Shown piece by piece: positions 6,930 through 62,695 of a stretch of 64,000 nucleotides of DNA. The notes beneath the pieces were generated by a model that did no database searches, was not told the origin of the DNA, and saw nothing but the letters and a program-made list of their open reading frames with translations. The number at the start of each line of letters is the position of its first letter. The stretch's first letter is position 1. Source of the stretch: Podarcis vaucheri (Eukaryota); NCBI GenBank assembly GCA_965113315.1, contig OZ220363.1. The stretch is one strand, 5' to 3'. The position numbers and the translations under genes were made by a program.

Positions 6930-7262
<333 letters not shown>

Positions 7263-10981: not shown

Positions 10982-11117
10982 CAGGCATCTCCAAACTCAG
11001 CCCTCCAGATGTTTTGGGACTACAACTCCCATCATTCCTAGCTAACAGGACCAGTGGTCAGGGATGATGGGAATTGTAGTCCCAAAATATCTGGAGGGCC
11101 GAGTTTGGGGATGCCCA
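10982..11117. mobile_element. Palindromic hAT MITE
   Basis: caggcatctccaaact...agtttggggatgccca; long internal arms ccctccagatgttttgggactacaactcccatcat / atgatgggaattgtagtcccaaaatatctggaggg; TSD ctctaggg/atctaggg. Confidence 0.85.
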
Positions 11118-11338
11118 ATCTAGGGTCTTCTGCATGGAAAGCAGCTGTTCTACCACAGAGCTACAGCCCATCCTCTAATTTCATGTGTGCACTCCTGCAG
11201 TAATGGAGTAAGTAAATCATTGTTTGATAAAATAGCATCCCTGCTATCACTAAAAAAGCCAGGTTGGATTGGAAAGCTCATCTCCCTGCATCATTTATCT
11301 TAGGACAGCATACGCTACACAAAAAAAGTCTGACGCAC

Positions 11339-11523
11339 CTCATAATCAATGTTCAAGTCATCCGAATCTCCCTTGGTTCGGAAATGCTGCATATACTTGT
11401 CCACCGTGAAGTTCACCTGCTTATTGAATCGCTCAATGAGGACCGAGTGCCAGTGTTGGTCATCCAGGAGGCTGCCCAAGGTGACGGACGTGTGACTGTT
11501 GCTGAAACGCAGCTTGGCATCTC
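11339..11523 (-). CDS. CNTNAP5: CNTNAP5 coding exon (human exon 6 equivalent), laminin-G domain 1
   Basis: cccctgcag|GAGATGCC...TATGAG|gtgcgt; 185 bp, phase 1 to 0; (G)[61 protein letters not shown]. Confidence 0.96.
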
Positions 11524-13729: not shown

Positions 13730-13865
13730 CAGGCATCCCCAACCTTAGGCCCTCCAGATGTTTTGGCCTACAACTCCCATGATCCCTAGCTAACGGGACC
13801 AGTGCTCAGGGATGATGGGTATTGTAGTCCAAAACATCTGGAGGGCCTAAGGTTGGGGATGCCTG
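13730..13865. mobile_element. Palindromic hAT MITE (same family as 10982-11117)
   Basis: caggcatccccaaccttaggccctccagatgtttt...aaaacatctggagggcctaaggttggggatgcctg near-perfect palindrome. Confidence 0.88.
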
Positions 13866-20687: not shown

Positions 20688-20891
20688 CCAGGTTGATGTG
20701 CAAAGAGAGCTTCCCTTTCTGCAGCTCTAGTGTAATATAATCTCCACGCTGCCCTTCTCCATGAAATAGGACCCCATCTCCCTGCATGCTCTTGAACTTC
20801 AGGGAAACAACATCTTTGAAGGTGCTCATCAGTTTTTGGTTGAACCTGTAAAGGAGGGAGCTCCTCCCATCAAAGTCGGCAATATCCGATT
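20688..20891 (-). CDS. CNTNAP5: CNTNAP5 coding exon (human exon 5 equivalent), start of laminin-G domain 1
   Basis: cccctgtag|AATCGGAT...AACCTGG|gtatgt; 204 bp, phase 1 to 1; (K)[67 protein letters not shown](G). The RFNQKLMST motif points to CNTNAP5 rather than CNTNAP2/3/4. Confidence 0.96.
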
Positions 20892-21134: not shown

Positions 21135-21451
21135 GGCCACGGGTTAAACCCACAGAAGGTTGGCGGTTCGAATCCCCACGACAGTGTGAGCTCCCATTGC
21201 TCGGTCCCTGCTCCTGCCAACCTAGCAGTTTGAAAGCACGTCAAAGTGCAAGTAGATAAATAGGTACCGCTCCGGCTGGAAGGTAAATAGCGTTTCCGTG
21301 CGCTGCTCTTGTTCACCAGAAGCGGCTTAGTCATGCTGGCCACATGACCTGGAAGCTGTACGCCGGCTCCCTTGGCCAGTAAAACAAGATGAGCACTGCA
21401 ACCCCAGAGTCGTCCACGGCTGGACCTAACGGTCAGGGGTCCCTTTACCTT
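21135..21451 (+). mobile_element. Sauria SINE (second subfamily, 5'-shortened)
   Basis: Diagnostic core plus ggtcaggggtccctttaccttt tail; TSD tacttattttgggag at 21120-21134 and 21452-21466. Confidence 0.9.
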
Positions 21452-21611
21452 TACTTATTTTGGGAGAGAGTTCCAAAGCTGAGGCCACTTCTGAAAAGTC
21501 TCTCTAGCACCTGTCTCTCTAATGCATTTTGATGGTGGACTGATGAGGAGAAGCTCAGAGGTACGTTTCCATGGGTGTAGGTGGTTTGTCAAACACCCTG
21601 TTCAAGCCGTT

Positions 21612-27293: not shown

Positions 27294-27657
27294 AAGGTAA
27301 AGGTAAAGGTACCCCTGCCCGAACGGGCCAGTCTTGACAGATTCTGGGGTTTGTGCGCCCATCTCACACAAGAGGCCGGGGGCCAGCGCTGTCCGGAGAC
27401 ACTTCCGGGTCACGTGGCCAGCGTGACAAGCTGCATCTGGCGAGCCAGCGCAGCACACGGAACGCCGTTTACCTTCCCGCTGGTAAGCGGTACCTATTTA
27501 TCTACTTGCACCCGGGGGTGCTTTCGAACTGCTAGGTTGGCAGGCGCTGGGACCGAGCAGCGGGAGCGCACCCCGCTGCGGGGATTCGAACCGCCGACCT
27601 TTCGATCGGCAAGCCCTAGGCGCTGAGGCTTTTACCCACAGCGCCACCCGCGTCCCT
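27294..27657 (-). mobile_element. Sauria SINE, full length, young
   Basis: Intact CpGs, (ACCTTT)n tail; TSD aattcaagattgta at 27280-27293 and 27658-27671. Confidence 0.93.
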
Positions 27658-27929
27658 AATTCAAGATTGTATGGAGCAATAAATAGAGTGCATGCAAGGC
27701 ACGCTGGCCCCACCCCAAAAGTTCAGCCAGCCCTCCTCCCGCATTATTCATCTGCTGTCAATAAATGGGAAGCCTCTTGAATGCATGCAGGCCTCCCCCC
27801 TGTCAACCAAAATAACAAGGAGAGTATTGGGGCCACGGTGAGTGGGTAGACCTAGTGCATATGGCTCCCCTCTCTCTTTAGTTAATCTTAATTGAGTGTT
27901 GGGAATAACACCAAAGGGCGTTGCAGAAA

Positions 27930-31948: not shown

Positions 31949-32003
31949 TACAAGATAAGAGTTAAACTTTCACATTATTTGATAAGAGTTAAACTTTCAT
32001 ATT

Positions 32004-32250
32004 GAGACTCCAATACTTTGGCCACCTCATGAGAAGAGAAGACTCCCTGGAAAAGACCCTGATGTTGGGAAAGATGGAGGGCACAAGGAGAAGGGGACGA
32101 CAGAGGACGAGATGGTTGGACGGTGTTCTCGAAGCTACAAACATGAGTCTGACCAAACTGCGGGAGGCAGTGGAAGACAGAAGTGCCTGGCGTGCTCTGG
32201 TCCATGGGGTCACGAAGAGTCGGACACGACTAAACGACTAAATAACAACA
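32004..32250 (+). mobile_element. Bov-B LINE 3' end
   Basis: RLQYFGHLMRREDSLEKTLMLGKMEGTRRRGRQRTRWLDGV...WRALVHGVTKSRTRLND; TSD aaactttcatatt at 31991-32003 and 32251-32263. Confidence 0.93.
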
Positions 32251-32934
32251 AAACTTTCATATTATTTGACTTTCATATTTACCCACCTTTCCTCAACTCA
32301 GGGCACTCCTAACTAAATGGTATTTCTGTTTTTCCCAGTCTTTGGGACCCTCGAAACTTTCATCTTCATCTGGCATTTTAATGGGCATCTATCTTAAAGC
32401 TCCAGCTTCTACACTACGCTTATGCAAATAAAACTTCAGTTGATTGCTTATTAAGAAAACATTTCTTTCTAGAATAAAACTATTTCAGTAACAACTTGCT
32501 ACGCTGGCATTTTGCTGTGTTTTTAAATAGTCATGACTAGAATATAATAAAAGGCAATCACAGGCACATGTTTCTCCATTATTAAAAATTAATTTAAGGC
32601 TGATCGCCCATCTGCAGCAGAAGAAATTAAACTTTAAAAATGGTTGTGCTTGCATATATTATAATTCTGCAACATTGTAGGCCATTCTGCACATTGCTAA
32701 AAGGGCAAATGAGACAAGCAGCTGTTTCGTGGGTGGCATTACACTGTTTGTCAGAGAGTGGCAGTGACTACAGTTTCCTACTGAGTAGACATCTGGTGAC
32801 AGGTTCAGTTTGTAGCTATGCAGTGAGTGCAATGGTCTAGCAACAGAGGTTGTAAACAGAGGGAAGTTTACAATGTGGTACCCAGCAGTTCAGTAGAAAT
32901 GTGGCATTTCTGCCAAATCATAGGAAATACTTAC

Positions 32935-33082
32935 TGTATGTACACCCAAAAACTTCAACCCGCAGGCCAATTTTCCCACTCGGACTCCATTTCAAAGGAA
33001 TGAAGCGCACAAAACGAGCTTTCACTGAGTGCAGAAATTTATGCTGCATGACACTGTCAGCATTGCTGTTCCCTTGGAAGAC
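32935..33082 (-). CDS. CNTNAP5: CNTNAP5 internal coding exon (equivalent to human exon 4), C-terminal half of the F5/8 type C (discoidin) domain
   Basis: Read by hand on the minus strand (absent from the ORF track): tttgcag|GTC...; translates [49 protein letters not shown] + A|gtaagta. 148 bp, phase 0 to phase 1. Closely resembles recalled CNTNAP5 [50 protein letters not shown]. Confidence 0.95.
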
Positions 33083-33479
33083 CTGCAAAGAAATAGAATT
33101 GGTTAAGTTATGGATTTTTTCCTTATTTAAAACATTTATCTACCACCCTTCACCTTTGGGGGATTTCAGGATAATGTACAAGCCAACATCCTATTATATA
33201 TATATATTTTAAAAAATCCAAGGGAGTATATTAAAAACAAAACTAAGAATTACAGCAGATTAAAATTCCTGGGTAAAAAAGAAATCTTGTGATGTAGCTG
33301 CCAGGGGAGAATATTCATGGAGGGTCTTCCACAATACAGACCCTACTAGTAAGTACTTACCAGTCGATATCAGGAAAGGTCCTAGGATATATAACTAAAT
33401 GGTCAGCCTGTCAGCCCTCAGAAAAGGATGCTTTGATTACTAAGACCCAGCATGGGTTTCTAAAAAATAAGTCATGCTG

Positions 33480-34072
33480 ATACATGTGAAAAGGATCTAG
33501 GAATCTCAGTATACCACAAGGTTAACATGAGCCTACAGTGTGACATAGCAGAAAAATAAGCTAATGCTATTCTAGGCTGCATCAACAGAAGTATAGTGTC
33601 CTGATCAAGGGAAGCAATAGTACCACTCTAGTCTGCCTTGGTCACCTGGAGTACTGTCTCCAGTTCTGTGAACCACAATTTAAGAAGGATTTTGACAAGC
33701 TGGAACATGTGCAGACAAAAGGTCCAGAAACCAAGCCTTATGAAGAATTGTTGAAGGAGCTGGGTATTTGTAACCTGGAAGAGAGGAGACTGAGAGAAGA
33801 TATGACAGCTGTCTTCAAACATCTAAAGGGCGGTCACAAGGAAGGTGAGGCTTCAAGTTACAAGAAAGGAGATTCTGACTAAACACCAGGAATAACTTTC
33901 TGACAGTAAGAACTGTTGTGTGGAATGGAATCACTCAGAATGTGATGAACTCTTCTTCCTGAGGGGTTTTTAAGCAGAGGTTGGATGCTTTTGTTGTGAT
34001 TTTTACATTGCAGGGGCTTAGATTAGATGACTCTCAGGATCCCTTCCAACTCTACAATTATATGGTTTTGTG
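33480..34072 (+). mobile_element. CR1 LINE ORF2 C-terminal/3' fragment
   Basis: gaaaaggatctagg...gctaatgctattctaggctgcatcaacagaagtatag...cccttccaactctacaatt. Confidence 0.85.
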
Positions 34073-36007
34073 ATTGCTTTATGTGGAAGTTGCATAATAT
34101 GGCTAGACTACATATTTATCTAAAATTGAAGATGGCAGGTAGATAGACTTATGCCTATGGCAATACTCTCAAGGTAATATAAAGCCTTGCCCCACACAAT
34201 AGTTGTGATCACAAGTCAAAAGCTACTAAAATCTAGGATGCTGTTCATTTAGCTGCGCTTTAACCTGTTAATATCAGAATCCATTAAAAGGGGGTGTGCT
34301 GCTGTGTGAAACATTTTTTGTCTTTAAAACTGGGATTAATGTGTGTCTGCAGTGATGCTGATAGGACACAGACAATCTCCTCAATTCCTCAACCTTTGGC
34401 AAAGCATCTGTAAAAAGCAGAAAGAACATTGCAGCTACACATGAGGGGAGAAAGGTTCCCCTGGAAAAAAAGACTGTCCACTCATCAAGGCATAATAAAT
34501 TAAGTGGCAGCATCAGGCACTGGCTGATATGTCTATCTCACTTGATAGCACAAGCCCCAGGATGCCAAAGTCATGGCATCTTCACAGAGCTGCACAAGCT
34601 GGCTACCATAATGACTATGGTGATTATCTTCCCTCTCACTTTATTAGGCAGGTAATGGGACAGGTCTGAACTGTAAATGGAAGGAAGGAGAGTTGGCACA
34701 CCAACACGAATGGTGCATCAACAGACTGGAGGTTAACTGCTTTCCCAGGGAGTTATTTCAAGCGGCTGCTAATGCTTTCTCTCCTGCCAAAGTCACAGAG
34801 GTGAGCTGAACCAAAGGAAAAGGAAAGACTAGGGAGGTGCAGATGCCCACATCACAGATGTTTTTTAATTTGCACTGTTGCATTCCTAATGCAAGAAAGT
34901 GCAGTGGCATAACTCTGCCCACTGCCTTCCACTGAACAAACAGGCCACTTCACACCCACTAATTGAGGCTGAAATGCTGCCCGTGAAAAGTGTATTTAAT
35001 TCCAATGAGATTTAGTGCATATGCAAAATTCTACGATCTATTTGACTATGCTGGGATCATTGACTTTAAGAAGCAGGCCTACCAAACTCTTTGCACCTTG
35101 TGAAGTAGTATATTTAGTTTATTACTTCATATCTTACAGCTATATAACTCTAAGACAAAGCTGGCTACAGGTTCAGGGCTTTAAAGGCAGAATGGTGACA
35201 CCCTGAGTTCCGAATCACTTTCCCAGCAAAGCTGGATGGATACTGCTAAATATCCTGAGCTTCAGCATAGGTATTGGACAGGGAGGGTTGGGGTGGGGTA
35301 TGGAAAGGCAGGTAGGAAGGATAAATAATTTCTGAGCTCAAATTCTTATCTTTTATTTTTTTTAAAAAAAAACCTAAGTGCCTACAAGGTTTAGAAAAAG
35401 TTAAAAAAGAAAAATGCAATTTTTCTTGCAATTCTTGCAATTTCTGCAAAATGAGCCAGTCTGGCTGCTCTGTGTTTATAGTCATTGAGTGAATACAGAG
35501 CTGTGATTGATGATGAGTGGGCACCAGGAATCCTTAATGCTGACAGTCATGATCTGTCATCTACCTAGGTATAAAAGTCTGGGATTTCTTGGGACTTCTT
35601 ATCCTCCAAGCAAGTCACATTGCTTAATTCTGAACATTGCTGCCTCGCCTTTTCTTCACCTCTAACATTGCTACAGGCCTATCCCTCTGACACTCAGGCC
35701 CTGGTAGGGGCCAGTTTGAAGAGTTCCTAAAATGATCTGACCCTGAAAAGGTGCCTCAGCCAGCCATGACGACAACAAGTAGGATGAACAGAGGCAAAGG
35801 AGGACACAACTCGTGTAACTTTCATATTTGTGTAGAAGATTTTTCATGCTAGCAGGTCAAGATGTTCCCCTTTTTAAAATCAAGCTATTCCTGCTTAAGT
35901 TACACCTGCTTTTAAACTTTAGTTTTATCATACAGGATAATCCTAAAAACAGAGGTGGGGAACCTCAGGCCCAGGGTCCAATTGTAATCATCCAAGCTTC
36001 TCTACCC

Positions 36008-36325
36008 AGTGGCGTAGCAAGATCAGGTGGTACCTGGGGCAAAAAAAATATCTTGCCCCCCCCCACACACATTGGTTTTTTTTAATATTTTGCCTGCAAA
36101 AATGGTTTGACTTGCTTTCATGGGGGGGGGGGGAGCCAGAGTGGTTGAGCTTTTTTTGTGGATATTGTGTGCCTTGCGACAAGGCAGGCGGACTCTTTTG
36201 GCAGTGGGAAGCCTGTGGATGCCAAAACCACACCATCTCTCACACAGACGTTGACTGCTGCACAGCATTTTGTCACCCCTCTCAGAGGTGACACCCAGGG
36301 CAGCCCGCACCCACCGCACTGACCT
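36008..36325. mobile_element. Probable Harbinger-like MITE
   Basis: agtggcgtagc start and the tgtcaccccctctcagaggtgacacccagggc hairpin typical of such MITEs. Confidence 0.45.
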
Positions 36326-39300
36326 TGCTCTGCCCCATCTCTACCTTTCCATTAGGACTCTCTCCAAGCCACACAACTTCTTCAGCCACACTCTCTTTTT
36401 CTATGCCCCGTACCTCATTGGCCTCACTTCCCATTCTCCATGGCTGAAATGTGTCCTTGAGTTTTGATATAGACTCTTTCTTTCCTAGACGGAATACAGT
36501 GGTGTGGGTGGGTGGGTGGAATAGCTTACTATACAACAGTAACATTTATAGTCATTGCTCCACCCACATTTGGCTCTGTCCCTGCCAGCATTTGACATGT
36601 GGCTCTGAAATCTTACTTGGAAGAGAATGTGTCCTGCATGCTGTTAATAGTCCCCCTCTCTGTGATGTAGGATCCTGGGCCTCTGGCCATTCTACGGAAA
36701 TGTATGTGAAGCAAGAAAGAGATGTATGGACTGGGGAAAAGATATGGAAATTAAGTATGCCAAAAGCTATGCTCTATCTTCCTGCAGCTATGTTCCTCGC
36801 AGCTTTAGGGATAATTCTTGGTCTTTGGAGAATCTGTCAGGAAGCTCGTCCTACACTCTAGTAGGACCCTGGGAATAATGGTCCCTGACATTTATATACA
36901 TTCTTATAAGACTGTGAGAAAGAACCTGCCAGATGATCTAATCTACACTAAAATGAAAATAGTCTCCTTCCTCCTACCCAAATTCTGTCAAAAATATCAT
37001 GCAATACAGATAATGTAATTAAAACCACAACCCACCACTAAATAGCATTGGATAACAAGCTTAGTATATCTTAAAAAAAAACACAAAAAAACTTTGTTGT
37101 TTGGAAAGCTTGCCAAATATATGTAGCTGTTAAATTAGTTAATTAGGTTGTTTATTTGGAGCCATACATATAGGTCTGGGCATTTTAAAAACGTAAGCAG
37201 AGAAAATGGAGTATTTTCCCCAGTTGACAAGGTTACACTAAGATGCTACCCTCCATCTCAATGTGTTTTGATTACATGATTCACTCAAGCAGAAACACCC
37301 ATTATGAGCTGCTAAATAACACAAGTTCTCTGCTTCAAATCCCAAGCAAAATACTAACAATATAAGTTTTTGCTGCAAAGCAAATTCTCTTTAGCACCAC
37401 CAAAGTTTGTAATACTCATATGAAATAATTATTTTTTATTTGTTATGATACCCAGGCATCGACTGCATGACCACAGATTTAGACTGAAATTCCAGAATGT
37501 ACTTTGCTGGAAGTAAACTGTATTGAAATCAATGGAACATGGTTTCAAGCAATCATGGCTGAGAGCATTTTGTGTGATGTAGGAGCACAACTCAGATTAA
37601 GCAGAATATTCCACCTTGACTTGGTGGCCCAGACAGCTAGGCTTCTCAGCTGGCATCAACTCTTACTTTGAGTTTACAAATTAGCAGGGCAGGTGCTTAG
37701 TTGGAGATAAACATTCATCCTTTGCTTAGTAGTCAAGCATCTGCTTTGAATACAGAGAGTTCAGGTTCAATCCCTGAGATCTTCAGATAGAGTGGGTAGG
37801 GTCTGCTGTCTGAGAACCCGGAAAGCCACTGTCAACACTACTGAGCTAAATAGATTGACCAATGGCCTGACTTGGTTTAAAACAGCTTCCTATATTAAAG
37901 GACTGGAATCAGGCTATTCTCAATCTAGGTCTGGCCTATTATAATACATTAAGACCACATTCACCTTTACCAGCAATGTTTGTGCCATCAGCGCCTTAAG
38001 AATAGTCAGAGCACACAAACAATATTTAGGGGGATCACTCAATCAAGCCATAGGTTCAATGACCACGTGAAGATACTCAGCACATTCTTTGGATACTGCT
38101 TACCCCAGGATCTTCCAGAAGGACTCTTAAGTTCATTCATAGGTACTCACAAAGGGTGCCTTACACAGTTGCAAAAAACATGATATCAGTAGCATAGCTA
38201 GTATGTTAGTGGGGCTGGTGGTGGAACACTATCAAGAACCCCTTAACACATTTTTTGGAGCTAAGAGACTATTTGAGTGTCCCCAGCTTATTGTTACATT
38301 GTGTAAACAAAACAAGGCAGGTCTCTGTCTATACATGAACCTTGTGTAACCCAACTGTATTCTTAAGAATGCGGTGAATATGTTTAGTGTCTAGCAGTGG
38401 GGAGCAATGCTTAAAGCCTTTGCATATTAGTCTCATCAGTAAGAGGTTAACCAGCTACCACTGTATTTCTTATTCCTATACTTTTAAATTAATTGGCCAG
38501 CTTTGTCCAATGAGATGACCCTAGGGAGATCTCTCTTATTCCACACTATAGTGAATTCAAATGAGAAAAAAATATGCTTTCATTATCTTACTGCATTTCA
38601 CAGGTAACAGTATGATAGCACCTCTAGTCAGACCTCTAAAGTAACACCATAGCAGTGAATATGGGGTAGAAGGGTCAATTTCCCTCAGGAGAATCCATCT
38701 CTGCTTAATGAGCTAAAATCCTTGGCATTCCAAATTCTCTTTAAGAAAAGTGAATTATAATGAAGTGCTTATGAAATATTTTGACCCCAGAAGAAATCTC
38801 ATTTTCACCTTATATACGTTTATGGGGGGGGCAATAAGAAAGTGTGTTTTGGACTTCCATGGGTACATCCAAAGACCCCTCTGTTCATTCCCACCACCTT
38901 CCTCTTCCTTTGCACAAGTGGCCACAGCCACTGGGATGTTCAATTCCCATCTTATATTAGCGATTAAGTCAGTGTTACTGCACACTCTTCATCACCCCCA
39001 AGAATGACAAAGATGCCTCTCTCTCTGTGCATTAAGGCAGCCTTCCTGGATTCACAGACAATACCCCACAACAGTGAGCCCGTGGTCCCACTCAAGAGCA
39101 CCTTGGTACAGAATGAATAGTCCAGCAGTTTATTCTGGCAACTTTACGTCAACCTTCTTGCAGGAGTTTAAAATGTATTGTTCTTCCCTTCCAGAAACAT
39201 CCTGCCTCCCTGGGTGCTGAGGCGACAGAGTCCACTCAATAATGTCTAAGTCCCAGGCAGTGCTTATGCAGCCTTTCAGGGACTCAGGAGGACTTCCTGT

Positions 39301-41583
39301 TACACGGGAGGGAACTGCCACATGGATGAGCCTAAGTTGGAAGTTCTTTGTGTTATAACAAATACCATAAGCAATAAAATCCTGTGTTAAGTACATTGTA
39401 TGGTATTAAAGACTGAAGTACTCCTATTTAAGATGGCATGTGGGCACATTTTCTTCTCCAGACTCTTTCCCTCTTGAATTATTTTAAGCTTTGTTGCTTC
39501 CTTCCATCTGCACAGTTTTAATTACGTAACCACCAGGCATCAACACAAAACCTTGCAAGGTGCCTATTGATGCCTGTCAATAGCTGAATTTTTAACAACA
39601 GGAAGCTGTGTAGAAGTTTTCAGACAATCTTTTTAAAATGAGAAATGTCCGTTTCTCATTATGCTCCTAAGCGTAAGTGAGAGTGGGAGACATGTGAAGT
39701 GGGATCTACAAATGACATTTGGCTAACGGAAAAAAGAGAAGCAGGTATAACACAACACTTTCAAGAGGCGTTAGAAAAGCTGTCTTCAGCATTTCCGCAG
39801 GTAATAATCTCAGCAAAAGCTCCCCTGAAATATGGCTGTGTGGATATTACCTCTTTAAGATGGTTGTATTTTACTGTGTAAACCAAGAGAGACTCTCAGT
39901 TGGAGCTGAGTTTACAGAATAAGCAGTCACTTACATGCTTTCTTTCCATACAATACTTATAACTTGTTTTAATAGTTAGAAATCATTGTAAATAGGTTTT
40001 AGATATTGACAAGTCGGACCACCAGCAAAATGCTGCTGTATACCCCCCCCCAAAAAAAAAACCTTGTGCTCAGTTCCTCTTTACTCTGGATGCCAGGATT
40101 AGAAACTCTCCCCCTTCAGTTGGGAAGAGAGAAGAGGTGCAAAAAGCTTACCTCTGTGAGTGAGTGTGGTGGTGGGGGGGGTGATATAGGTTCTTTTCAG
40201 CACACAGATAGGGTTCCTGGTGAGGTAACGTATGTACACTGTTTGTTGTCCCCACAGTAGCCATTTTGTGTTATGCCCCATACCCATGATGGCCATTTTA
40301 TGACTGGTGCCCACATAACTTTCACAATATTCCGAATGTACCCACTGGCCCCAAAAGGTTGATGACTCCTGGGGCTGAAGCAAGCTGATTCTCTCTCTTT
40401 CCTTCATTTTATTCCCCACCACCACCAACACTCACAATCATGTGGCTTCTAGTTACCACTGAGAATACTAAGTCCTCGTTGGATAGTTGTTTTTGAGGTG
40501 GCTGGCCCGTTTTAGCTTTTAAAAGATATTTCAAACTTCTAGAAATGCCAGGGATCCCCTGAACATTCTGATAATGCCCTCTTGTTTTGGCTCAGTTCCT
40601 GCTGGTTATTCAGAGTAGATAGATCCAAAGATCCATTAATTTTAATAGGTCTAATCTGGGTAAAACTTAGTTGAAGACCATTCTAAGTTTGTTTTTAGAA
40701 TGAGAGTGTTACAAATGTTTGTTTTCTGCAAGTTGTTTTCGACCACTTGGATCCTGAGATCCAAGGATCTTGGGTTCTTAGCAAAATATGATGGCATGGC
40801 ATTATCAAATGGATAGCTGATGTAAGTCCAACACAGGTTAGAGTAATTGCACTGAGGAAAGTTGGAATGGAGAAAAAGTTTGCAGGAGAAATACTGTCAA
40901 ATGAAACCAGCTGGGACAGCTCAGTCGTCCAGTACTCTTCACTGTATTCAAATATCCAGTAGATAACTGAAAAAGATTTAGATTAGAATTTGATCTCTTT
41001 ATGAAACCAAGTGTAGCTACAAAGGTAGAAAGGGAGATTATGTGTCTTTTTCAAAGTGTTAAAATTATGCATGGTGTAGAGAAAGCAGATAAATAACAGT
41101 TTTTCTCCATCTCTCATTACACTAAAGATTAATACTAATGGATCTATGCCATTGTTGCACTGTGATTCCACCATAACGATGACCCCAACTTGACAACCGC
41201 TGATGCAAAGCTAAAAATAAAGGAGAAGGGTAGATGGCAAACATGAGTTTTCTCACAATCTCCTATAGGCATGAGACCACAGGACTCCACTGACTAACAC
41301 TCCTAATGAAACTCAGCACCACTGCTGCTACTTAAGGCAGCACACACAACCTGCAAAGACAAGGCACACTATCCAGGTAATCAGTGACCGTATCCATTTT
41401 ATTAATTTATTTATATACCACTTTTCATATTAAAAAATTGTACCCTCCTTTGAGCCCCAGCCAATCAAACCTCACTAGGTCATGCTACTGTTGGGAGCAA
41501 GTCACTGGTAGATCACACTGACCTGGACAGATTATATGGGGAAAGCCAGTCTCAGACATAACCCAATCCCAAACTCTCTAGAG

Positions 41584-41905
41584 CAGGGGTGTCAAACTCA
41601 AATTTATCGGGGGCCACATCAGCAGTTTGGTCACCCTCAAAGGGCCGGTTGTATCTGTAGGACTTTACATGAATGCATGTAAAGTGGAGGTTTCCTGTGT
41701 AGAACGGCCGGCGCTGCTAGAGGGCAGACGTTCTCTGGCTTTTAGGCTGCTGCGCATGCGCTGAAGAGGCGGCTTTCTTGTGTCAAAAAAAGAAAGAAAG
41801 CGAGAATAAAAGGTGAAGGCTGGCGGCCGGCGGTGGCTACACGGGCCACATGACGAGGTCTGGCGGGCCGGATTCGGCCCGCGGGCCTTGTGTTTGACAC
41901 CCGTG
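41584..41905. mobile_element. Non-autonomous hAT element with CpG-rich core
   Basis: caggggtgtcaaac...gtttgacacccgtg TIRs; perfect 8-bp TSD ctctagag at 41576-41583 and 41906-41913. Confidence 0.92.
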
Positions 41906-41913
41906 CTCTAGAG

Positions 41914-42295
41914 ATTTATAGGTCTAAAAACCAACACCTTAACCTTGACTAATCAGCAGCCGTTGCAGATCCTCACCACTAGCAATATGCGGGTGTGTAG
42001 GAAGCCCCACATAGCTGCATCACCTTGCACTATCAGTGGCTTCTAGTCATCCAATTATAAAATTGCCAACAATAGCTTGGCCAGAGCTGGAAGTAAGTTC
42101 TCCTTGTCACTTAGGTCACTAGAACTTCCATTGACAAAGACAGACCCAAGAGCACACAAACTTGCCTTTTGAGAGAGAGTGCAACCACATTCTGAATTCC
42201 CTGTTCCCAGACCCAGGAATTTCCCACTCACTGTGCCTGTCTTATCAGGATTCAACTTCAGTTTATTTTGCACCCCTTTGCACAGGCAACTCAAG
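41914..42295 (-). mobile_element. Decayed L2 LINE RT fragment (host of the hAT insertion)
   Basis: Minus-strand NKLKLNPDKT motif, typical of L2 RT. Confidence 0.65.
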
Positions 42296-43389
42296 GAGCT
42301 AGCCTTGGTTTGTAAGTCTGAGCAATGAGGCTATGCTTCTCCATTATTCCTGTTTTACGCAGAGCACCTATTTTTTGTAGTTACCGTACTTGATAAATAA
42401 AATCACAATTAATAGTCTCTTCCTATTCAACTAGTTATTGATGATAACATGGATGCTGCTTTTGTCACTGAAGGGGACAATTTTGTTATGTTATTAAATT
42501 GTCATGCATCAAACAAGGATTCACACCTAGAATCCATGTGATGCTGTGCTTTTCTCAAGACTCCTAAACTTCCATCACCCACAGCCATCTCTTAGCATTT
42601 AAATCAATATGTTTTCTGTTCTCTCTCTGCCCCCTCCCCCAAATCTCTCTCCCCTGTACTTAAAACTAACAAGTGATAGTGCTTGACTTTCAGGAGGGAG
42701 AGTGGGGAAGTGTGATTTTTAACAGGATGCAGATTTCTATTTTGAGCTTCCCCCACCCCCGCCAATTTGAAGGGAAGCCAAAGCAAACCTTACAAATGCA
42801 GAATGATTCACTAGGGATCTTTACAACAAGAACAACATGATGCAGACAAGCTGGGGTGGGGAACTTCCAGTCTGTGGGCCAGGTATTTTTAGGGAAGCCA
42901 CATCCTCCTGCCCTTTATCTGATGCCATACATGATATTGGGCTGAGCAAATAAGGGCAGGACTTTAAAAGAACAACCAGGAGCTGAAAGTGGACTCCTGG
43001 TTATTCATATGCTGTAGCAACACACACTGTTAGCTGCCCATCAGCTGATAGGCAGTAGAAGTGTGCCTTGCTCAAAGAGGGGGGAAATGGGTCCCATTGA
43101 ATGGAAAGTGCTTCTCCCTCCCACCTCTGCTTTTTTAAGCTGCCCCATGTGTCTCCCTTCTACCACCAACAAAGGAGATAGAATGGAGCCCCCCCCAGAC
43201 TGTGGAATGCTTGCAAAACCTTTTGCTACCCTCCCTGTGCTTTCCTTTGCTCCTCTGACACTGGGGAGGCTCACAAAACCCCTTCCAATCTGCAACACAG
43301 GAAAGTTGAAAGGGAGGTTGCAGGGCAGGCATGGGGTTGGTTGATTTTCTGTTCCGCCTTCACCACCCCCCTGTCACCACCACTGTTGA

Positions 43390-43945
43390 TGTTGTTAATG
43401 GAGGAATCCAAGGGTTCCCTTGGGCAAAAAAACAAAAACACCAACCAGGACAATTTGGAGCAAAACAGCAGCCTGTAGGCTTGGCCTTTATTGGAAACTG
43501 TCGCGACAGGACTCCCACCCACAACAAGATGAAGCAAAATGGAAGCCCCGAACAAAAGAAGACCCCAACATTTATTAGCTACTAATCCCCCAAACTACAC
43601 CCCCAAACTACATCACAACTACATCATTGATACATCACAAAAAGGAGAGAGGGGGGAGTTGAGGAGGTAACTCAAGTATCTTGTCACCTGGCTGGTTCCT
43701 CCTTTCCTCCCTCCCTATGAGTCACTTCCAGGAGACAAAAGGGGATTGGCAGTTTCCTGCCCCCAGAGGGAAGATCTGATCATTGTCCTTTGTTCCAGTC
43801 TGTGTTGAATCCACTCCCATATTCAAGTCCATTGTGCCCTTGATGGTCTTCTGTCTGGGACCATCAAGGTTGCCATGCCAACTGGGCAGGGCTCCTGCGT
43901 ACCTGTTGGCACGGTTAAGGGATTATGGCTGTCCTGTATCAAACC
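43390..43945 (-). mobile_element. Probable solo LTR (boundaries approximate)
   Basis: Minus-strand AATAAA (tttatt at 43487) in an aataaaggccaagcctacaggctgctg context; short internal tandem duplications; TSD not found. Confidence 0.45.
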
Positions 43946-44052
43946 ATCCCCTTTGATAGTCCTTCCTTCATGGAGCAAAATAAAAGTGGACCAGTGTAAA
44001 TCCGATGTAAGGTTGATTTACTATGAATTTATAACAGAAACGTCGCGTATAT

Positions 44053-44102
<50 letters not shown>

Positions 44103-44129
44103 TGCGTGTGTGTGTGTGTGTGTGTGTGT
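44053..44129. repeat. (TG)n(GA)n(TG)n compound microsatellite
   Basis: Direct reading. Confidence 0.95.
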
Positions 44130-44411
44130 AGTGCAGTGTTTGTACAAACTGAATGATGGGGGGGGGGGTCCTGCAACACTGTCAGAAAGAAGAGAAAGAA
44201 ACCAACATTTTAAAATGATCAGGAGGGACACCAAATGCAGGATTGCCAGCTAGCCACATTTTGACATACGCAAAGAAATACATTTTGCCATCTAAAAATG
44301 GAGCCTGCAAGATCCTCTAAAGTTGCCTATCTGTCCCGCTACTGAAGGGTGCATAACAGAGTCTTCCTAAGATGGCAATGCTGAACTATTCTACAGAGTG
44401 CATACAGATTT

Positions 44412-44456
44412 GTGAAGAGTTGGACACAACTAAACGACTAAACAACAACAACAACA
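44412..44456 (+). mobile_element. Very short Bov-B 3' tail
   Basis: gaagagttggacacaactaaacgactaa(aca)n. Confidence 0.8.
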
Positions 44457-44935
44457 AAGGCTTCCTCAGCTATAGGTTTAGCCAGTGCACTGCATTTCCT
44501 CTGAAGATCATAGGGTGCATTCCAACACAAATTACAAAATGTGAACACAAAAGACATAAGAAAAACAAAAACAAACCAATAACTGCCCCCCACAAGCACA
44601 TTTAAAAGGACATAGAACGTTCATCAGCCCAAGGCCTGGTTAAAAAGAAACATTTCCCCTTGGCACCTGAAGGTGCAATGAAGGTGCCAGGCGAGGTTTC
44701 CTGGGGAGAGCATTCCACAAAGGTGGAGCCAACATAGAAAAGGCCTGTTTTCATATTGCTACCCTCCAGACCTCTCTGGTGTCAATTGCTTTCCTCTTCC
44801 CTTCCCATTTTGTTTTTCTTTTATATCTTGTCCATTAGATTGTGAACCTTATCTTTTAATGAATGCGCAGAGCACAGATATTTCTAGGTGCTGATTAATA
44901 ATGGCCACTCCCCACATCAAATGGGGGGCATACTT

Positions 44936-45777
44936 TGTGTGGACGCGCACAGCACCCCTGATCCTACACGGCTGCTAACAGTATTGCCTGGCATGCCCTG
45001 CCCCCGGCTGGGTACCTGGAGGTTCCCACCCAACCTTGGACCAATCCCAGTGGGGGAGGCATTGCCAGGGGAGTTGGCCAGGTAGGGGGTGGGACTTCCC
45101 TACCCACACAATAGACGGTGGAACTTACCTGGGGGATCACAGTCGACTCCATAGCTTCTCCCACCCCACCCTCCCTCAGTTAAGCTTTCCTTTGCAGGTT
45201 AACTTCTTCTTCACAGGTGTGCTGGCGCTGCTATGTATTGGTCACTGTTAAAGGGCCGGAAAGGAATTTTCCTGCATTGACAGGTTTTACCTTCCCCGTA
45301 GCAAAACATCACGACTTTGGCGGTTTCAGGCCTTGGGTGGAATCCTTTAGTCTTTCTTCCCTAAAATGGGGAAGGGGGACCATGAAGCGGTGACCCACGC
45401 CCCCCCCCCCATGGTGGCAATCCCAGGGTTCCCCGTTAAAGGGGTTGTTCTGAGGGGAGTCATTGGCCATACGCCAAGAGGCTGTCATTGGTCTCCCCCG
45501 CGTTGCGGTGAATTGGGGGGCGGACTCTCTGTTTGAACAGACGTTCTCCAGAGCCAGTCCAATCCCCACTCAATCTGGATAACCCTGATGTTCCCCAGAT
45601 CCCCGCCTGGGGACTGGGAGGGATAAACGCCCAAGGCCTAAGCCAAGGTCTCCCTACACCTGAATCTTAAATAAAGTTGTGGCCAATTTTCATCCCATAA
45701 CACAGTGTTGTGTGTCTTTATTCCATGCGGGAGCCAGCCTTGGGTTGCGGGGGGGGGGGTCTCCGCCTGTCCGCGCA
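44936..45777 (+). mobile_element. Probable solo LTR (~840 bp)
   Basis: Termini tgtgtggac...gtccgcgca (TG...CA, short inverted repeat), GC-rich body, AATAAAgttgtggcc at 45670; TSD not recovered. Confidence 0.65.
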
Positions 45778-46972
45778 ATGATAATAACAGTAATACTAAT
45801 AACAGTGCATTTAAAAATAATAATGATAATATTGCAAACTGATCAATGCCAACCCAAAATACAGTCATTTTTGCACTCCCCCATCACAATTCCCTTGGCA
45901 CCCACCTAATTTAATTGAAAAGCACATTGATTCTTTTCAGGCACACAGACTGACATGACCTTAAAACTGAAGCGTGGCTCATTATATGGTAACAATTGTT
46001 CTTGATACAGTTTTTTCTCTTCACCACCCACATTCACAGCAGCACAAAGAACGATCTGGGCCCAGTACTTTGCATCCAGACCATTGTGCTTTCCCCCTTA
46101 TTAATTTGACACAGACAGCAAACTTCCTCAGGCTGCAATCGTTAACTCTCTCTCTCTGACATTTGTGGTTACAGATGCACGCAGTCAGAGAAATGGCACT
46201 GCAATTAAATAACTACTAACCAATGCAAACACATGATATAACACCAGGCTATGATGCAAATGTTCTTGGTTTCTATTTTAATAAGACTAGTGACACTGCC
46301 GGTTAACAATGAAGGCAATAGGCACATTATAAGCTGGCAGGCAGACATTAGGTAACACAGAATTCACAGCCTAGGTCTCTGTAATGAATGCGCTAAAGGA
46401 AAGCATCTGAAGTGTACTCTTCTTAATATGCTTTGTCTCTTTTTCACTTGAAAGCCGCTAGAAGGAAGCCAGATTAGTTTACAGGGTTCTCCCCCTCCTC
46501 CCGTAATATGGAATAGTAGGCTTGGGGGTGTAATTTACTTGCTCCTGAAATAAATAGCAACATAGGTACAGTTCTTAAGGTGGTATAGTCACACAGAGTG
46601 CCTATTCAACACACCAGCAGAGTGTGCCAATGGAACAGAAATACACCAGACAGTTCTAGGTTTACTAGCACTGTAATGCAGTTGCACAGCTTGTAAATTA
46701 CATACAGTTGTAATATACAGACCTTCTAGGAGCATATAGTCTCCTTGCAATGTTTGAACACATACTAGGCTCAGGGCAAGGGCTTCAAATTGAAACTTGC
46801 TTCAAAATGTATTTATACTAGATTGTGCTGAGTCACTCTCTCATGCTTGACATGAGCCAACAGTGTGGCACGGCAGCTAAAAAGCCAATGCAATTGTGGG
46901 CTGCATCAATAGGAGTATAGCATCTGTCATAGGGCAGTTGGTGGCCCTGTGTGGGGAGGGGATAGTCTAGTT

Positions 46973-48396
46973 CAGTGTTTCCCAACCTTTTTTGGGCAAA
47001 GGCACACTTGTTTCATGAAAAAAATCTCGAGGCACACCACCATTACAGCCCCGTGACGTCAGCGCGCAGCGTCACGCCGGGAGGGACATGAATTGCTAGC
47101 AAATTACATAATCACCTCCTTGAGGGCTGGCTCATCTTCTCCGAAGGCAGAACCCCATTAATTAACAGCACAGACTCACACCATAGCCAAGACGAGGGGG
47201 GAAACCTCAGTCATGCACAGTCATGCACATGTGGGGGCTAAATGAGGATGAAGACCGGGCAGAGAGCAGGGTTCAAATCACCCCACCTGGCCAGGACAAT
47301 CCCTGGGTGCTCCCTTGGGCCACTCGCCTGACCCACCTCGCAGGGCTGTTGTTGCGAGGATAACACGGGGAGAACCACGCGCGCCCCCGGGAGCTCCTTG
47401 GAGGAGAAAGCGGGCGATGAATGCAATGCACGAAATATATGAGAGGCGACCAGGTTTTGCAGGTGAGGGGCCCCCGCCAGCCTCCGCTTCCAACACCCGG
47501 CGCAACGACGCCGAAGTTTTCCCCCGGGCTCGGCTCGGGGAGCAGCGCTGCTCCCCCCCGGCTCCCCTTCGCCCTCCTGGCTCTCTCTGCCGCCCACTGG
47601 GGACCCCCCTCACCTGCCAAGTCCGGAGCGCCGGTGGAAGTTGCATGCATGCATGCAGGGCGCCACGTTGCCATTGCATTGCACTGCACTCCATGCAATG
47701 CCTGCACGCATGCATTGCCTTGCACGCCCGCCAAGGGGTCTCCCCACGGTCTGATGCGTCCCCTCTGGCGCGGATGCAGCATTGCAAAAATAAAAAACCC
47801 CCGACGCAGCCCTACCTGGGGGGCAGCCTCCGCCGCTCCGCCTCCGCGGGGATCCCCGGGCTCCATCCTGCCGCCCGATCTCCGCGGGGGCGCAGGCAGG
47901 CTGCGCAGGGTCTGCGCGGAAGAGCCCCTGCCCGCCCGGCCGCCGCCGCTGCGCTCATTCCATGGCCGGGAGAAGAGCGCTTCAAACAAAACGCCCGGCC
48001 CGCCAGGCCACGCTGGGAAACGTAGTTTGCGCACCCCATGCGGGCGCGGAGCCCAAGGGCGAGGGGACTACGGATCCCGGCAGCCCCCGCGCCGGGGACG
48101 GAGGGGGAGAGGCCGGGTGCAGGGATGGAGGGACGGGTGGGCGAGCGAGTGAGTGAGTGGCAGCCGCCAAGCCTTGGCCGAGAGCCAGGAAGGGCCTCCC
48201 CGGAGGAGGAGGAGGAGGGAGGCGCAGAGCGGGAGGGAGGGAGGGAACCCCAGGGGTCATCTAGTGACGGCGCCCCAATCGAAAATTTGACTTAAAAAAA
48301 AATATATATTTCGAATTTTTTAATTTTTCCCGCGGCACACCAGGCAACATCTCGCGGCACACTAGTGTGCCGCGGAACAGTGGTTGGGAAACACTG
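46973..48396. mobile_element. Non-autonomous hAT element carrying a CpG-island-like cargo
   Basis: Perfect 15-bp TIR cagtgtttcccaacc / ggttgggaaacactg; perfect 8-bp TSD gtctagtt at 46965-46972 and 48397-48404; no transposase ORF. Confidence 0.93.
47760..48260. promoter_or_regulatory. CpG-island promoter-like segment inside the hAT element
   Basis: Very high GC/CpG; ZNF143/THAP11-type motifs actacgtttcccagcgtggcc (minus, 48006-48026) and actacggatcccggcagccc (plus, 48067-48086); Kozak ATG at 47866 and CAG|GTAGGG donor at 47816/47815 on the minus strand. Confidence 0.55.
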
Positions 48397-49701
48397 GTCT
48401 AGTTGGAACAGAATTAATATACTGCTATTATATTGGCTACAGCAGAGAGGACACCATAAACAAACAAACAAGCAAGCAACCAAACAAGCAAGCAAACAAA
48501 CGGACAAACTTCGCTGTCTCAACCTCGCCACCCTGCTGCCTGGGAGTCGTACAAGGAGGGGCTGCTAAAATTTATGGACCTATGCCAGCCGACCAGAGGT
48601 TCCACACCACTCCTATAGACTGCAAGGAGGCCATCCCCCTTCTGGTTGTGTGTGCCAGAGGCACTGATATCAATCTGATGTGCCCACCAGCTCCTGATCC
48701 TCTTCCAGGTTCTCTGCCAGTCTGGTTCTACACACTGTCATGTTACCTGTGGAATTTTAAAGGATTTCAGTGTAGGATGGCAAAAACATTATGAGAGATG
48801 CTAGAGGTAAAGAAAGCCATAGATGAACACTCAGATTATCCTGGCCTCTGCAGCATAGATTGTTTAATAGAATGGGGCAGTGCAGCACTTTTAAAACCTT
48901 AACCGTTCTGGCTATAAAATACAACTCCACTGGGCTCTTCTTTTAGAAGAGTTATGACAAGTGTAATCAATAAGGCTTGTTAGCATATGGTGTGAAAGGG
49001 TCAGAGGACTCCTTCAACTCCCTGGGTGCATCATTTGAAAGGGCAATAGGGATATATCACTGCACTGTGCAAGACAATAATTCCATTCAAAGTCCCAGGT
49101 TCCGAATGTTTCATATGAAAACATTAAATATTGTCAGAAATTCTCTGTCTTTCCATTGTAACGTTGGTCTTCACAATAGGACATAAATTCAGCACTGATT
49201 TAAAACTGATATAAAACTGCAAGATGTTTCAATGAATTGTTGCCATTCATTAATCACCTACCCATATGTTTTTGTTGACTGGAACATATAATGGCCTAGC
49301 ATACTCAAAAGCAGAGGCTTCTGAGATCTGATATTTTCAGTTTAGACATTAAGGGCTGCTCTTCACTAGAGCACTCTCCACATGATTGCCGTGTGGCCAA
49401 CTTCCATGCACAGGGATCATACACACAGCTTGCATGCAAAGGGACAGGAGTGGGACTTTCCATCCCACTTCAATGTTCAAAACTCCCACTGTTCTAGGCA
49501 CATTTTGTGACAGGGAATTTCATTAGCACAAGCAGTTTCTGAGCGCTAGGCACAGTACTGCGCCTAAGATTTCAGACTAAAACTGCAGAGTAGAAGGAAA
49601 GGATGACCTTTTTCTGCCTCCCCACTTCCAGCTACTCTATGAAGACAGGAGAAGAGACCTTCTTAAAAATATTAGGAGGGTGGCCAGGAGAAGGACTAGA
49701 C

Positions 49702-49837
49702 TGGGCACCCCCAAACTCACCTCTCCAGATGTTTTGGGACTACAGTTCCCATCATCCCTGACCACTGGTCCTGTTAACTAGGGATAATGGGAGTTTTAGT
49801 CCCAAAACATCTGGAGGGCCAAGTCTGGGGATACCTG
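49702..49837. mobile_element. Palindromic hAT MITE (same family as 10982, 13730)
   Basis: Same arms; 8-bp TSD gactagac at 49694-49701 and 49838-49845. Confidence 0.88.
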
Positions 49838-50214
49838 GACTAGACCATGTGAAAAATGAATATAATATTTTAGCTGCAGTTCATTCATTTCCAGCATTGT
49901 ATTCTTGTTATAAAAAAGTGCACCTAGGCATTCCATTGTTACACCCATAACCTAGGTTTAAGGTGCCATTTAGCTCCTAGCTTTCATATCTCAGTTTCTA
50001 ACACTTTCCCACTTCCAATTCAATGCCCACATGAAAAGCCATATTTACATGCACAGAGGAACCTAGGACAATCCTTGGGTAGCAGCCTAACCTTTCTTGT
50101 GTGTGCTCATTATGTCTAAGACTATATGTTGTGGAATACATTGTATACACATCTTAAATACTTAACGTAGAATCTATGGGACTCAAGGGTCATCTAGCAA
50201 CGCCCCCATGTCAA

Positions 50215-59300: not shown

Positions 59301-59384
59301 CCCAGGCAGATCATCAACAGAAAGTAATATGACTATATCCCAAACTGAACCCACAGAATTTACAATACCTTTTATCTAGACTTA

Positions 59385-59740
59385 CCGTATTTTTTGCCCT
59401 ATAGGACGCACTTTTTTCCCTCCAAAAATGAAGGGGAAATCTGTGTGCGTCCTATGGGGCGAATGCAGGCTTTTGCTGAAGCTTGGAGAGCGAGAGGGGT
59501 CGGTGCGCACCGACGCCTCTCGCTCTCCAGGCTTCAGGAAGCTATCAGCAAGCCTGGGGAGCCCGCGGGAGTTCCCGCAGGGCTCCCTAGGCTGTGGATA
59601 GCAGCCTGATGCCTGGAGTGTGGGGCGCGCTGAAGCCGCGGCTGGGGGGGGGATAATTTTTTTTCTTTACTCCCCCCCCAAAAAAAAAACAACTAGGTGC
59701 GTCCTATGGGCCGGCGCGTCCTATGGGGCAAAAAATATGG
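59385..59740. mobile_element. Tc2/pogo-like MITE, short variant of 14361-15070
   Basis: TA|ccgtattttttgccctataggacgc...gcgtcctatggggcaaaaaatatgg|TA; first ~155 bp nearly identical to the 14361 copy. Confidence 0.87.
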
Positions 59741-60048
59741 TACATACATTTTCAGTAAAGCGAGAATCTTCTAAGGAAAGGTTTTGACTTGCAACTATGA
59801 AAGCTAGAGCAAGTGGATTGTATTAAATTCTCAGTGGCCTCATAAACTGGACTGACTTTTATTCTCAGCTATTCTGTAGCAGTAGCTTCGGAGGGTAACT
59901 TTCTGCAAAACTTTCAAAATGTAAATTTACTTACAGAACAATTAATAATCTCCATTCTACTTATGGAACACATAATAATCTCTATCCTACTTATGGATAA
60001 GGCTATCCACAGATACTTGATAATTACACTTTACTAACTGCAGCAAAT

Positions 60049-60413
60049 TGGGACGCGGGTGGCGCTGTGGGCTAAAGCCTCAGCGCCTAGGGCTTGCCGA
60101 TCGAAAGGTCGGCGGTTCGAATCCCCGCGGCGGGGTGCGCTCCCGCTGTTCGGTCCCAGCGCCTGCCCACCTAGCAGTTCGAAAGCACCCCCGGGTGCAA
60201 GTAGATAAATAGGTACCGCTTACCAGCGGGAAGGTAAACGGCGTTCCGTGTGCGGCTCTGGCGCGCCAGAGCAGCGATGTCACGCTGGCCACGTGACCCG
60301 GAAGTGTCCCCGGACAGCGCTGGCCCCCGGCCAATAAATGTGAGATGGGCGCACAAACCCCACAGTCTGTCAAGACTGGCCCGTTCGGGCAGGGGTACCT
60401 TTACCTTTACCTT
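60049..60413 (+). mobile_element. Sauria SINE, full length, young
   Basis: (ACCTTT)n tail; TSD taactgcagcaaat at 60035-60048 and 60414-60427; highly similar to the 27294 copy. Confidence 0.93.
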
Positions 60414-60619
60414 TAACTGCAGCAAATATACTTAACATTTGAAGCAGACCTTGCATTATTCTCCTGCTCCTTTTAAAGCTGATCAACTAGAAATTTAGGA
60501 TACCTCTTGCAAGGCATACATTTGACTCCACCTCCTGTTTTGTTTTTGGTCTTTTGAAATACTTCCCAATCAAGTGACAGACATATAGACATGTGTCATC
60601 AGATTGCCCATAATACACG

Positions 60620-61958: not shown

Positions 61959-61984
61959 TGTTCTGTGCTTATGATAATATTTTA

Positions 61985-62331
61985 GGTAAAAGGACCCTGA
62001 CCATCAGGTCCAGTCGTGACCGACTCTGGGGTTGCGGCGTTCATCTCGCTTTATTGGCCGAGGGAGCCAACGTACAGCTTCCGGGTCATGTGGCCAGCAT
62101 GACTAAGCCGCTTCTGGTGAACCAGAGCAGCGCACAGAAACGCCGTTTACCTTCCTGTCAGAGCGGTACCTATTTATCTACTTGCACTTTGACGTGCTTT
62201 CGAAATGCTAGGTTGGCAGGAGCAGGGACCGAGCAACTGGAGCTCACCCCGTCACAGGGATTCGAACTGCTGACCTTCTGATCGGCAAGCCCTAGGCTCT
62301 GTGGTTTAACCCACAGCGCCACCTGCGTCCC
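61985..62331 (-). mobile_element. Sauria SINE (second subfamily)
   Basis: TSD tatgataatatttta at 61970-61984 and 62332-62346. Confidence 0.92.
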
Positions 62332-62695
62332 TATGATAATATTTTAATCTCTTGCTAATTATCCTGTTTTAAATGTGTGTTTTATATTTGACTTCCTTTA
62401 GTAATGTTTTCTTTTGAATTTTCTTTTTAACTTCTCTGCATTAGATGTGCATTCTGTAGTTGACCTCCCTTATAATGTTTCATTTTGAAATCTTTAAGAT
62501 AATATTTTGGTTTCCTGTTAATCATGTTGCCTTGAATGCATATTTTATATTTGACTTTCTTCAGTAACGTTTTATTCTGGAATGTTTTATTTGATATTTT
62601 AATGCAGACTGTAAACTGCATGCATTCCCCCCCCCCTTAAAAATATAAGGTAGCATAGAAATTAAATGAATAATAATAGCTATAGCTGCCAACAC

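Follow-up and report, generated by a model that had tools for sequence, protein, structure and literature searches.

Results

The locus, its repeats and the sequencing runs

The window analysed here is a 64,000-nucleotide stretch of Podarcis vaucheri contig OZ220363.1 (assembly GCA_965113315.1). On its minus strand we found four exons of a gene which we take to be CNTNAP5, and which we presume to be its exons 4 to 7. By profile search they encode the end of an F5/8 domain followed by the start of laminin G, while a PDB search could not separate the CNTNAP paralogues for these exons. Motifs of exon 3 were not found in the 64-kb window. The host gene features are:

32935..33082, minus strand: CNTNAP5-like exon 4, the proposed acceptor; 148 nt, phase 0 start, end of F5/8
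20688..20891, minus strand: CNTNAP5-like exon 5; start of laminin G
11339..11523, minus strand: CNTNAP5-like exon 6; part of the open frame
6969..7112, minus strand: CNTNAP5-like exon 7; part of the open frame

Several repeats share the window with these exons. A GC-rich repeat, built on a 119-bp tandem unit and containing internal palindromes, is present in two related copies (14179-15327 and 59382-59742), and positions 14179-14288 of the former are repeated exactly at 15218-15327, like terminal direct repeats. A SINE-like family is represented by five copies (2653-3015, 21153-21454, 27292-27661, 60046-60415 and 61984-62334), and another repeat by three pieces (4037-4289, 32003-32255 and 44414-44453); we take this family and the three-piece repeat to be Sauria SINE and Bov-B. 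Two LTR-like stretches of high DNA depth (about 43430-43790 and about 44930-45790) lie in the same intron as the element described below, and the first of them has sense-strand AATAAA hexamers at 43576 and 43492.

A search of sequencing runs listed 24, of which 20, from 11 studies, contain the stretch, none of these being recorded as RNA; 14 contained at least half of the sampled words, under six organism labels. Four runs of one congener were mapped onto 32700-48800, namely X5 (DNA-type) and the RNA-type runs X15, X20 and X23. That X15 and X20 are RNA is a guess, made because 11 and 9 of their 30 bins, respectively, have zero depth, a pattern that X5 does not show.

A non-autonomous hAT element

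The intron upstream of exon 4 holds a non-autonomous element of 1,424 bp (46973-48396), the ends of which are perfect 15-bp terminal inverted repeats (TIRs) flanked by an 8-bp target site duplication (TSD). The candidate first exon to which the first-pass annotation had drawn attention lies between these ends and is transposon-borne, as had been proposed. The features of the element are:

46965..46972, plus strand: left copy of the TSD, GTCTAGTT; matches nnnTAnnn
48397..48404, plus strand: right copy of the TSD, GTCTAGTT; identical to the left copy
46973..46987, plus strand: perfect 15-bp TIR, CAGTGTTTCCCAACC; opposite TIR at 48382-48396
46973..47087, no strand: transposon arm common to shorter sister elements; loose ends at 47045 and 47087
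48332..48396, no strand: other transposon arm, also present in a mini-element of some 96 bp; X5 has a joint between 46995 and 48332
47088..47815, minus strand: likely start of KRBA1 intron 1, CpG-rich; judged by its position behind the KRBA1-like exon
47810..47815, minus strand: splice donor GTAGGG; phase 0 for the ATG at 47866, and the KRBA1 peptide match stops at the donor codon
47816..47866, minus strand: copy of the KRBA1 first coding exon, 17 codons; match to lacertid KRBA1
47867..48300, minus strand: likely KRBA1 promoter and 5' UTR, from Lacerta model tracking and CpG observed/expected ratio (o/e); upper boundary within about 35 bp either way
48014..48026, minus strand: perfect match to the M4 motif ACTAYRNNNCCCR, THAP11/ZNF143-type; motif scan
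48067..48079, plus strand: second perfect M4 match; motif scan

Buster-family hAT elements are described as having an 8-bp TSD of consensus nnnTAnnn and short TIRs of 5-27 bp, in the part of the source available to us (PMC3517528). All of these are found here, with an 8-bp TSD, a 15-bp TIR and an nnnTAnnn site, and at other left flanks the consensus drawn from 137 reads ends in CCTAGAC. Judged by its TIRs, TSD and target site, the element is a non-autonomous hAT, probably of Buster type. A Helitron is ruled out by the TIRs and the 8-bp TSD, as Helitrons are not known to have TIRs or a target duplication. The interior had also been considered as the 5' end of a transposase gene, a reading given up after the match to KRBA1 reported below.

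The ends are shared with other elements. Loose ends in X23 comprise 117 reads at 47045 and 118 at 47087, the same positions recur in X5, and two sister families part from the element after these points, having only its first 73 and 115 bases in common. The mini-element in X5 joins the two arms to each other. At least three shorter sister elements with the same ends are present, one of which could be the parent that preceded the capture. One metagenome scan with the arm sequence returned no matches. A second hAT-type MITE of 322 bp lies at 41584-41905; its 8-bp duplication CTCTAGAG fits nnnTAnnn, and its depth in X5 is high.

The interior resembles the 5' end of KRBA1

The minus strand carries a start codon at 47866 whose context has A at -3 and G at +4. 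The 51 nt from there to 47816 encode the peptide MEPGDPRGGGAAEAAPQ; the donor is CAG/GTAGGG, where CAG is codon 17 itself and the intron starts at 47815. The 17-codon exon and its phase-0 donor, as first annotated, are thereby confirmed in the sequence. The two upstream ATGs noted with them are likewise present, at 47963 (two codons) and at 47958 (phase 2 at the donor), although the earlier list left out a third at 48039, which lies in the 47958 frame. After a splice to exon 4 the upstream frames would stop inside that exon, at 67 and 94 codons.

A protein search of the candidate peptides, proposed at the outset as a way to find the donor gene, led to KRBA1. For the 40-aa frame that ends at the donor, one of 356 candidates matched, the Lacerta agilis KRBA1 XP_033021945.1, with 31 of 42 positions identical (E 0.25 in a database of 5.8 billion sequences). 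The match stops exactly at the donor codon, after which the Lacerta protein runs into its KRAB box. For the first 114 residues of this model, counterparts can be traced along the element from 48260 down to 47816, in pieces that fall in three frames. Although the 40-aa query missed it, the Zootoca vivipara KRBA1 (XP_034985679.1) carries a homologous peptide from residue 1 and then the KRAB box, and in shuffle tests of the element peptide 0 of 20,000 shuffles reached the score against Zootoca and 0 of 20,000 that against Lacerta. The exon of the element is shorter by indels (17 codons, against 28 aa in Zootoca and 23 aa in Lacerta). In the Podarcis muralis model A0A670JB11 the KRBA1 match begins at the residue after the donor-codon Q, a start that fits an exon boundary at the donor. 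The 75-aa frame read from 48039 and 47958 had no protein match among 5,403 candidates and for that reason is not taken as the donor gene's frame. No other KRBA1 exon was found in the window by tblastn with three proteins.

On this protein-level evidence the donor gene is KRBA1, and the piece taken is its first coding exon. By structure the element is thus classed as a Pack-TIR, with host gene sequence between TIRs and a match to KRBA1 N-termini. Because the peptide matches KRBA1 exon 1, the ATG and donor of the exon are the working ones of the parent gene.

The P. muralis KRBA1 models P0003 and P0034 both come without the first coding exon, which could reflect repeat masking of a multiplied exon or an assembly gap; in the former case the element family may explain why these models are without exon 1. 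At the other end of the protein, the C-terminal 200 residues of squamate KRBA1 (P0006, P0007) comprise a coiled-coil-like region and a further motif, which in our view resembles LINE-1 ORF1p; a LINE-1 ORF1-like C-terminus had no Pfam support across five proteins (E 0.01).

The interior as a whole (47088-48300) has 65% G+C and a CpG o/e of 0.72, compared with 0.27 for the window. This value indicates little decay and fits a young element, but it fits an unmethylated active state as well. Besides the exon's own donor, further GT donors occur in 47088-47815, after 47614 and 47337. The two M4 matches follow a THAP11/ZNF143-type motif definition taken from the part of the source available to us (PMC5006282), and two matches arose by chance in 1 of 2,000 dinucleotide shuffles of the interior. 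M4 also occurs five times in the window outside the element, four of these in a palindromic repeat family, and because of this recurrence the pair is no proof of a promoter. That family is MITE-like, about 140-150 bp long with M4 in its arms (10975-11123, 13730-13865 and 49693-49846), and accounts for four of the seven matches in the window.

Direction of the capture

Clear similarity to exon 1 is confined to lacertids, and the Lacerta match reaches 48260, near the inner boundary of the element. Both would also be expected if the transfer had run the other way, with an older copy of the element landing before the KRAB exon and being adopted as the lacertid KRBA1 exon 1. We consider this highly improbable. 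A leader already stands before the KRAB box in each of the seven named orthologues examined from squamates other than lacertids (Hemicordylus, Sceloporus, Sphaerodactylus, Pogona, Candoia, Paroedura and Pseudonaja). It measures 37-64 aa in six of them and is mostly rich in G, A and P, and the Sceloporus model has a 150-aa leader, inside which an MEP start lies some 35 residues ahead of the box. The gecko leader is, like that of Zootoca, 28 residues long to the Q-T boundary. Outside lacertids the similarity of exon 1 itself is weak (401 of 20,000 shuffles for Zootoca against gecko, 5,641 of 20,000 for Lacerta against gecko). Further, the element is young, differing by about 1% from RNA-type contigs of a congener, whereas the exons of Lacerta and Zootoca are separated by several indels. 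A short first coding exon thus looks ancestral, as judged from the non-lacertid leaders in the protein models, and this favours KRBA1 as the donor.

Copy number and age

In X5 the two interior bins reach summed depths of 511,984 and 499,203, and six single-copy bins have a median of 108; the resulting ratio of 4,600-4,700 is summed over contigs and no direct copy number. By our own reasoning, contigs built from 31-letter words would inflate depth at most 31-fold, an assumption that leaves a floor of about 150 copies. Read in this way, the summed depth makes roughly 150 to 4,700 copies likely in the congener. In line with many insertions, the flanks into which 137 raw reads run from the left TIR are mixed (agreement 0.66).

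Since the depth is a sum over contigs, since 46973-48396 is the single full copy read, and since most animal Pack-TIRs are single-copy in the part of the survey available to us (PMC8277862), we asked how well the data would fit a low-copy element whose interior depth has a different source, be it an array of tandem copies, a second carrier element or an artefact of depth. Such an origin is strongly disfavoured, as about 150 copies remain even after 31-fold inflation, the interior depth in X5 is as high as that of the element's end bins, and contigs of X15 and X20 (start 47059) join the interior to the transposon arm.

As for age, the congener differs from the window at 219 of 9,368 letters in unique flanks (2.3%), and from the interior at 13 of 1,244 (X20) and 12 of 1,218 (X15), or about 1%. 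The amplification is likely no older than the congeners' split, because interior divergence is about half of flank divergence. No empty site was found among the 15 of 121 joints listed. Taken together, the DNA depth and the one full copy read describe what is apparently a young, high-copy hAT family carrying the KRBA1 5' end.

The putative splice into CNTNAP5 exon 4

The first-pass annotation had proposed that the exon could splice in frame into exon 4 (33082), which also starts in phase 0. The acceptor there is TTTGCAG, 14,733 nt downstream of the donor, and an in-silico splice of the element exon to exons 4-7 gives 244 codons with no stop; the frame therefore allows the splice. The phase match needs no selection, because exon 1 of KRBA1 already has phase 0 towards the KRAB exon of that gene, and insertions of the element are apparently very widespread. 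Exon 4 covers F5/8 profile positions 86-127 of 127, so that the product would lose about two thirds of the discoidin domain and not half, as had been stated. Its N-terminus would be without a hydrophobic stretch (Kyte-Doolittle mean of 0.62 at best over 9 residues), and for want of a hydrophobic leader it would likely not enter the secretory route normally.

Actual use of this copy finds no support in the RNA-type runs. A joint from 47816 to 33082 is not among the 15 of 121 joints listed for the congener runs, no place with many molecule starts is listed within the element in the three RNA-type runs, and no loose end at the donor is among the 24 listed (1,097 more stand outside the list, as would in any case an end at about 12-fold depth). 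In X23 the depth of the exon bin (12.6) equals that of the intron bin (13.0), and in X20 a single contig of 1,254 nt (47059-48302) reads through the donor. Depth in the exon-4 bin is no more than 15 in the DNA run and, across the three RNA-type runs, 0, 0.18 and 0; the host gene may be silent in these samples, or the bin filtered out. This negative result is weak, because the other species may be without the insertion, 15 of 121 joints were listed, exon 4 may have been filtered, and CNTNAP5 is apparently not expressed.

The X15 contigs (47059-47845, 47823-47916 and 47887-48223) include an end at 47845 that could reflect use of the donor by some locus, which we regard as only a hint, since a variant at 47846 would give the same contig end. 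A break at 47845 is expected if the next exon does not start with G, as in KRBA1 exon 2 (Thr codon), while a splice to exon 4 predicts 47843.

Relative to DNA depth, RNA depth over the interior is low. The ratio in X23 is 2.5e-5, with six of seven other repeat bins higher (4.1e-5 to 8.7e-5) and one lower (6.6e-6), and it lies below six of seven bins in X15 too and below all seven in X20, in ratios that are blurred by contig merging and uneven inflation. A low interior ratio is as expected for background read-through. In the unique bins beside the element (45588-46661) the depth is at most 2.55 in X15, 0 in X20 and at most 0.08 in X23.

Discussion

The stretch examined here is best explained as a copy of KRBA1 exon 1, likely captured along with promoter and initial part of intron 1 by a non-autonomous hAT element that has likely reached hundreds to thousands of copies, this copy likely being a mostly silent passenger in an intron of the CNTNAP5-like gene. 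We assign this reading a probability of roughly two thirds. Under it, a short Buster-type element would have acquired, between its two arms, some 1.2 kb from the CpG island of KRBA1 with its ends kept, and would then have been amplified in trans by an autonomous Buster transposase. As promoter motifs, ATG and donor travel together, each sense-oriented intronic copy would constitute a latent promoter trap. Most copies are likely repressed, their RNA being mostly read-through from host introns or UTRs.

Two more active roles for this copy were weighed. In the first, it would be in active use as an alternative first exon, joined by splicing to exon 4, and would yield a CNTNAP5 without signal peptide. 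Such a role could draw on a real ATG and donor inherited from KRBA1, two M4 motifs, a sense orientation and a frame open through exons 4-7, and it has a precedent in HelibatN3, which acted as an exon trap in HeLa cells (PMC4778049). We nevertheless regard it as very unlikely. The RNA-type runs gave no such joint among the 15 of 121 listed, no pile of starts and flat depth, which is a weak test, and the X15 break at 47845 lies two bases off the expected 47843. Between donor and exon 4 stand 21 crude acceptor candidates and 13 AATAAA hexamers, three upstream ATGs precede the start, and the product is without a hydrophobic N-terminal stretch. A chimeric protein from this copy would consequently need an unmethylated element, scanning past up to three upstream ATGs, and skipping of all these acceptors and hexamers. 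In bats, too, only three transcripts passed a strict start-site test from a family of about a thousand copies, according to the portions of the reports available to us (PMC4778049, PMC4224331).

In the second, the promoter of this copy would fire and its RNA would end or splice before exon 4, or run antisense, giving noncoding transcripts. The opposite orientation of the two M4 motifs, the many cryptic acceptors and poly(A) hexamers downstream, the poly(A) signals of the LTR-like stretch and the splicing of HelibatN3 to cryptic sites (PMC4778049) are all compatible with such transcripts. The adjoining unique bins, on the other hand, have practically no depth in the three RNA-type runs, even if the congener may be without the insertion, and we deem this outcome unlikely.

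Beyond the likely silent copy at this locus, the family as a whole may have brought working KRBA1 CpG-island promoters, each with its ATG and phase-0 donor, to hundreds or thousands of places in wall-lizard genomes, a subset of which would act as gene traps and give rise to N-terminally truncated host proteins. We advance this tentatively, at somewhat less than even odds. A young hAT family with a complete CpG-island promoter, exon and donor in so many copies would amount to a natural experiment that places the same CpG island in hundreds of contexts. One could then ask whether CpG islands and motifs of the THAP11/ZNF143 type shield themselves from methylation, how frequently an insertion leads to a chimeric gene, and whether a transposon that carries a host promoter spreads better for it. 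For lizard neurobiology, a CNTNAP5 isoform would gain weight only once demonstrated.

Among known systems, SVA_F1 with MAST2 exon 1 in humans is presumably an analogue, in which a mobile element took up a CpG-island first exon and spread. SVA_F1 is a retrotransposon, its capture took place at the RNA level by splicing, and no intron is carried.

Closer in structure are the Pack-TIRs of animals. A survey of 100 animal genomes arrived at 370 Pack-TIRs, whose inserts have a median of 224 bp; four are multicopy, and none comes from anoCar2, its one lizard genome (PMC8277862, here and below as far as the available part of that paper extends). Its worked example, Pack-hAT-N8_XT, carries the 5' UTR of CAPSL in three copies, and multicopy animal Pack-TIRs tend to capture GC-rich DNA (PMC8277862). 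The KRBA1 element shares with animal Pack-TIRs the TIR structure, the hAT superfamily and host sequence between the arms, but differs in an insert of about 1.2 kb with promoter motifs, exon and donor and in an apparent copy number of hundreds to thousands. KRBA1 and Podarcis are not mentioned in the supplements of that survey (PMC8277862). With Buster hAT MITEs such as Mar, as portrayed in the available part of PMC3517528, it has in common short TIRs, an 8-bp nnnTAnnn TSD, no coding capacity of its own and a high copy number; its interior, in contrast, is a GC-rich host gene fragment and not AT-rich filler or a transposase remnant, and it is placed near them by its ends.

The closest functional parallel is HelibatN3, a bat Helitron of about a thousand copies that holds the promoter, the initial codons, the splice donor and part of intron 1 of NUBPL (PMC4224331, from the part at hand). 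It functioned as an exon trap in HeLa cells, only three Myotis brandtii transcripts passed a strict start-site test (PMC4778049), and the prediction is that its intronic copies express host genes truncated at the N-terminus (PMC4778049, PMC4224331; both from the sections available). High-copy capture of a promoter and first exon has thus been described for bat Helitrons, and animal Pack-TIRs are, in the portion of the survey at hand, almost only single-copy (PMC8277862). Like HelibatN3, the KRBA1 element carries an ATG and a donor together, as shown by homology, while a promoter and a partial intron are suggested by position, CpG content and M4. HelibatN3 is a rolling-circle Helitron of bats, whereas the present element is a cut-and-paste hAT of lizards with TIRs, an 8-bp TSD and KRBA1 as its donor gene; and exon-trap activity has been demonstrated for HelibatN3, whereas for the KRBA1 element it is hypothetical. 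No earlier description of a KRBA1-carrying family was found in the literature searched (subscription journals, Repbase and Dfam lay outside its scope, and the family may exist there as an unannotated repeat). Our analysis points to a KRBA1-carrying hAT family, apparently undescribed in that literature, which would work in the manner of the HelibatN3 promoter trap.
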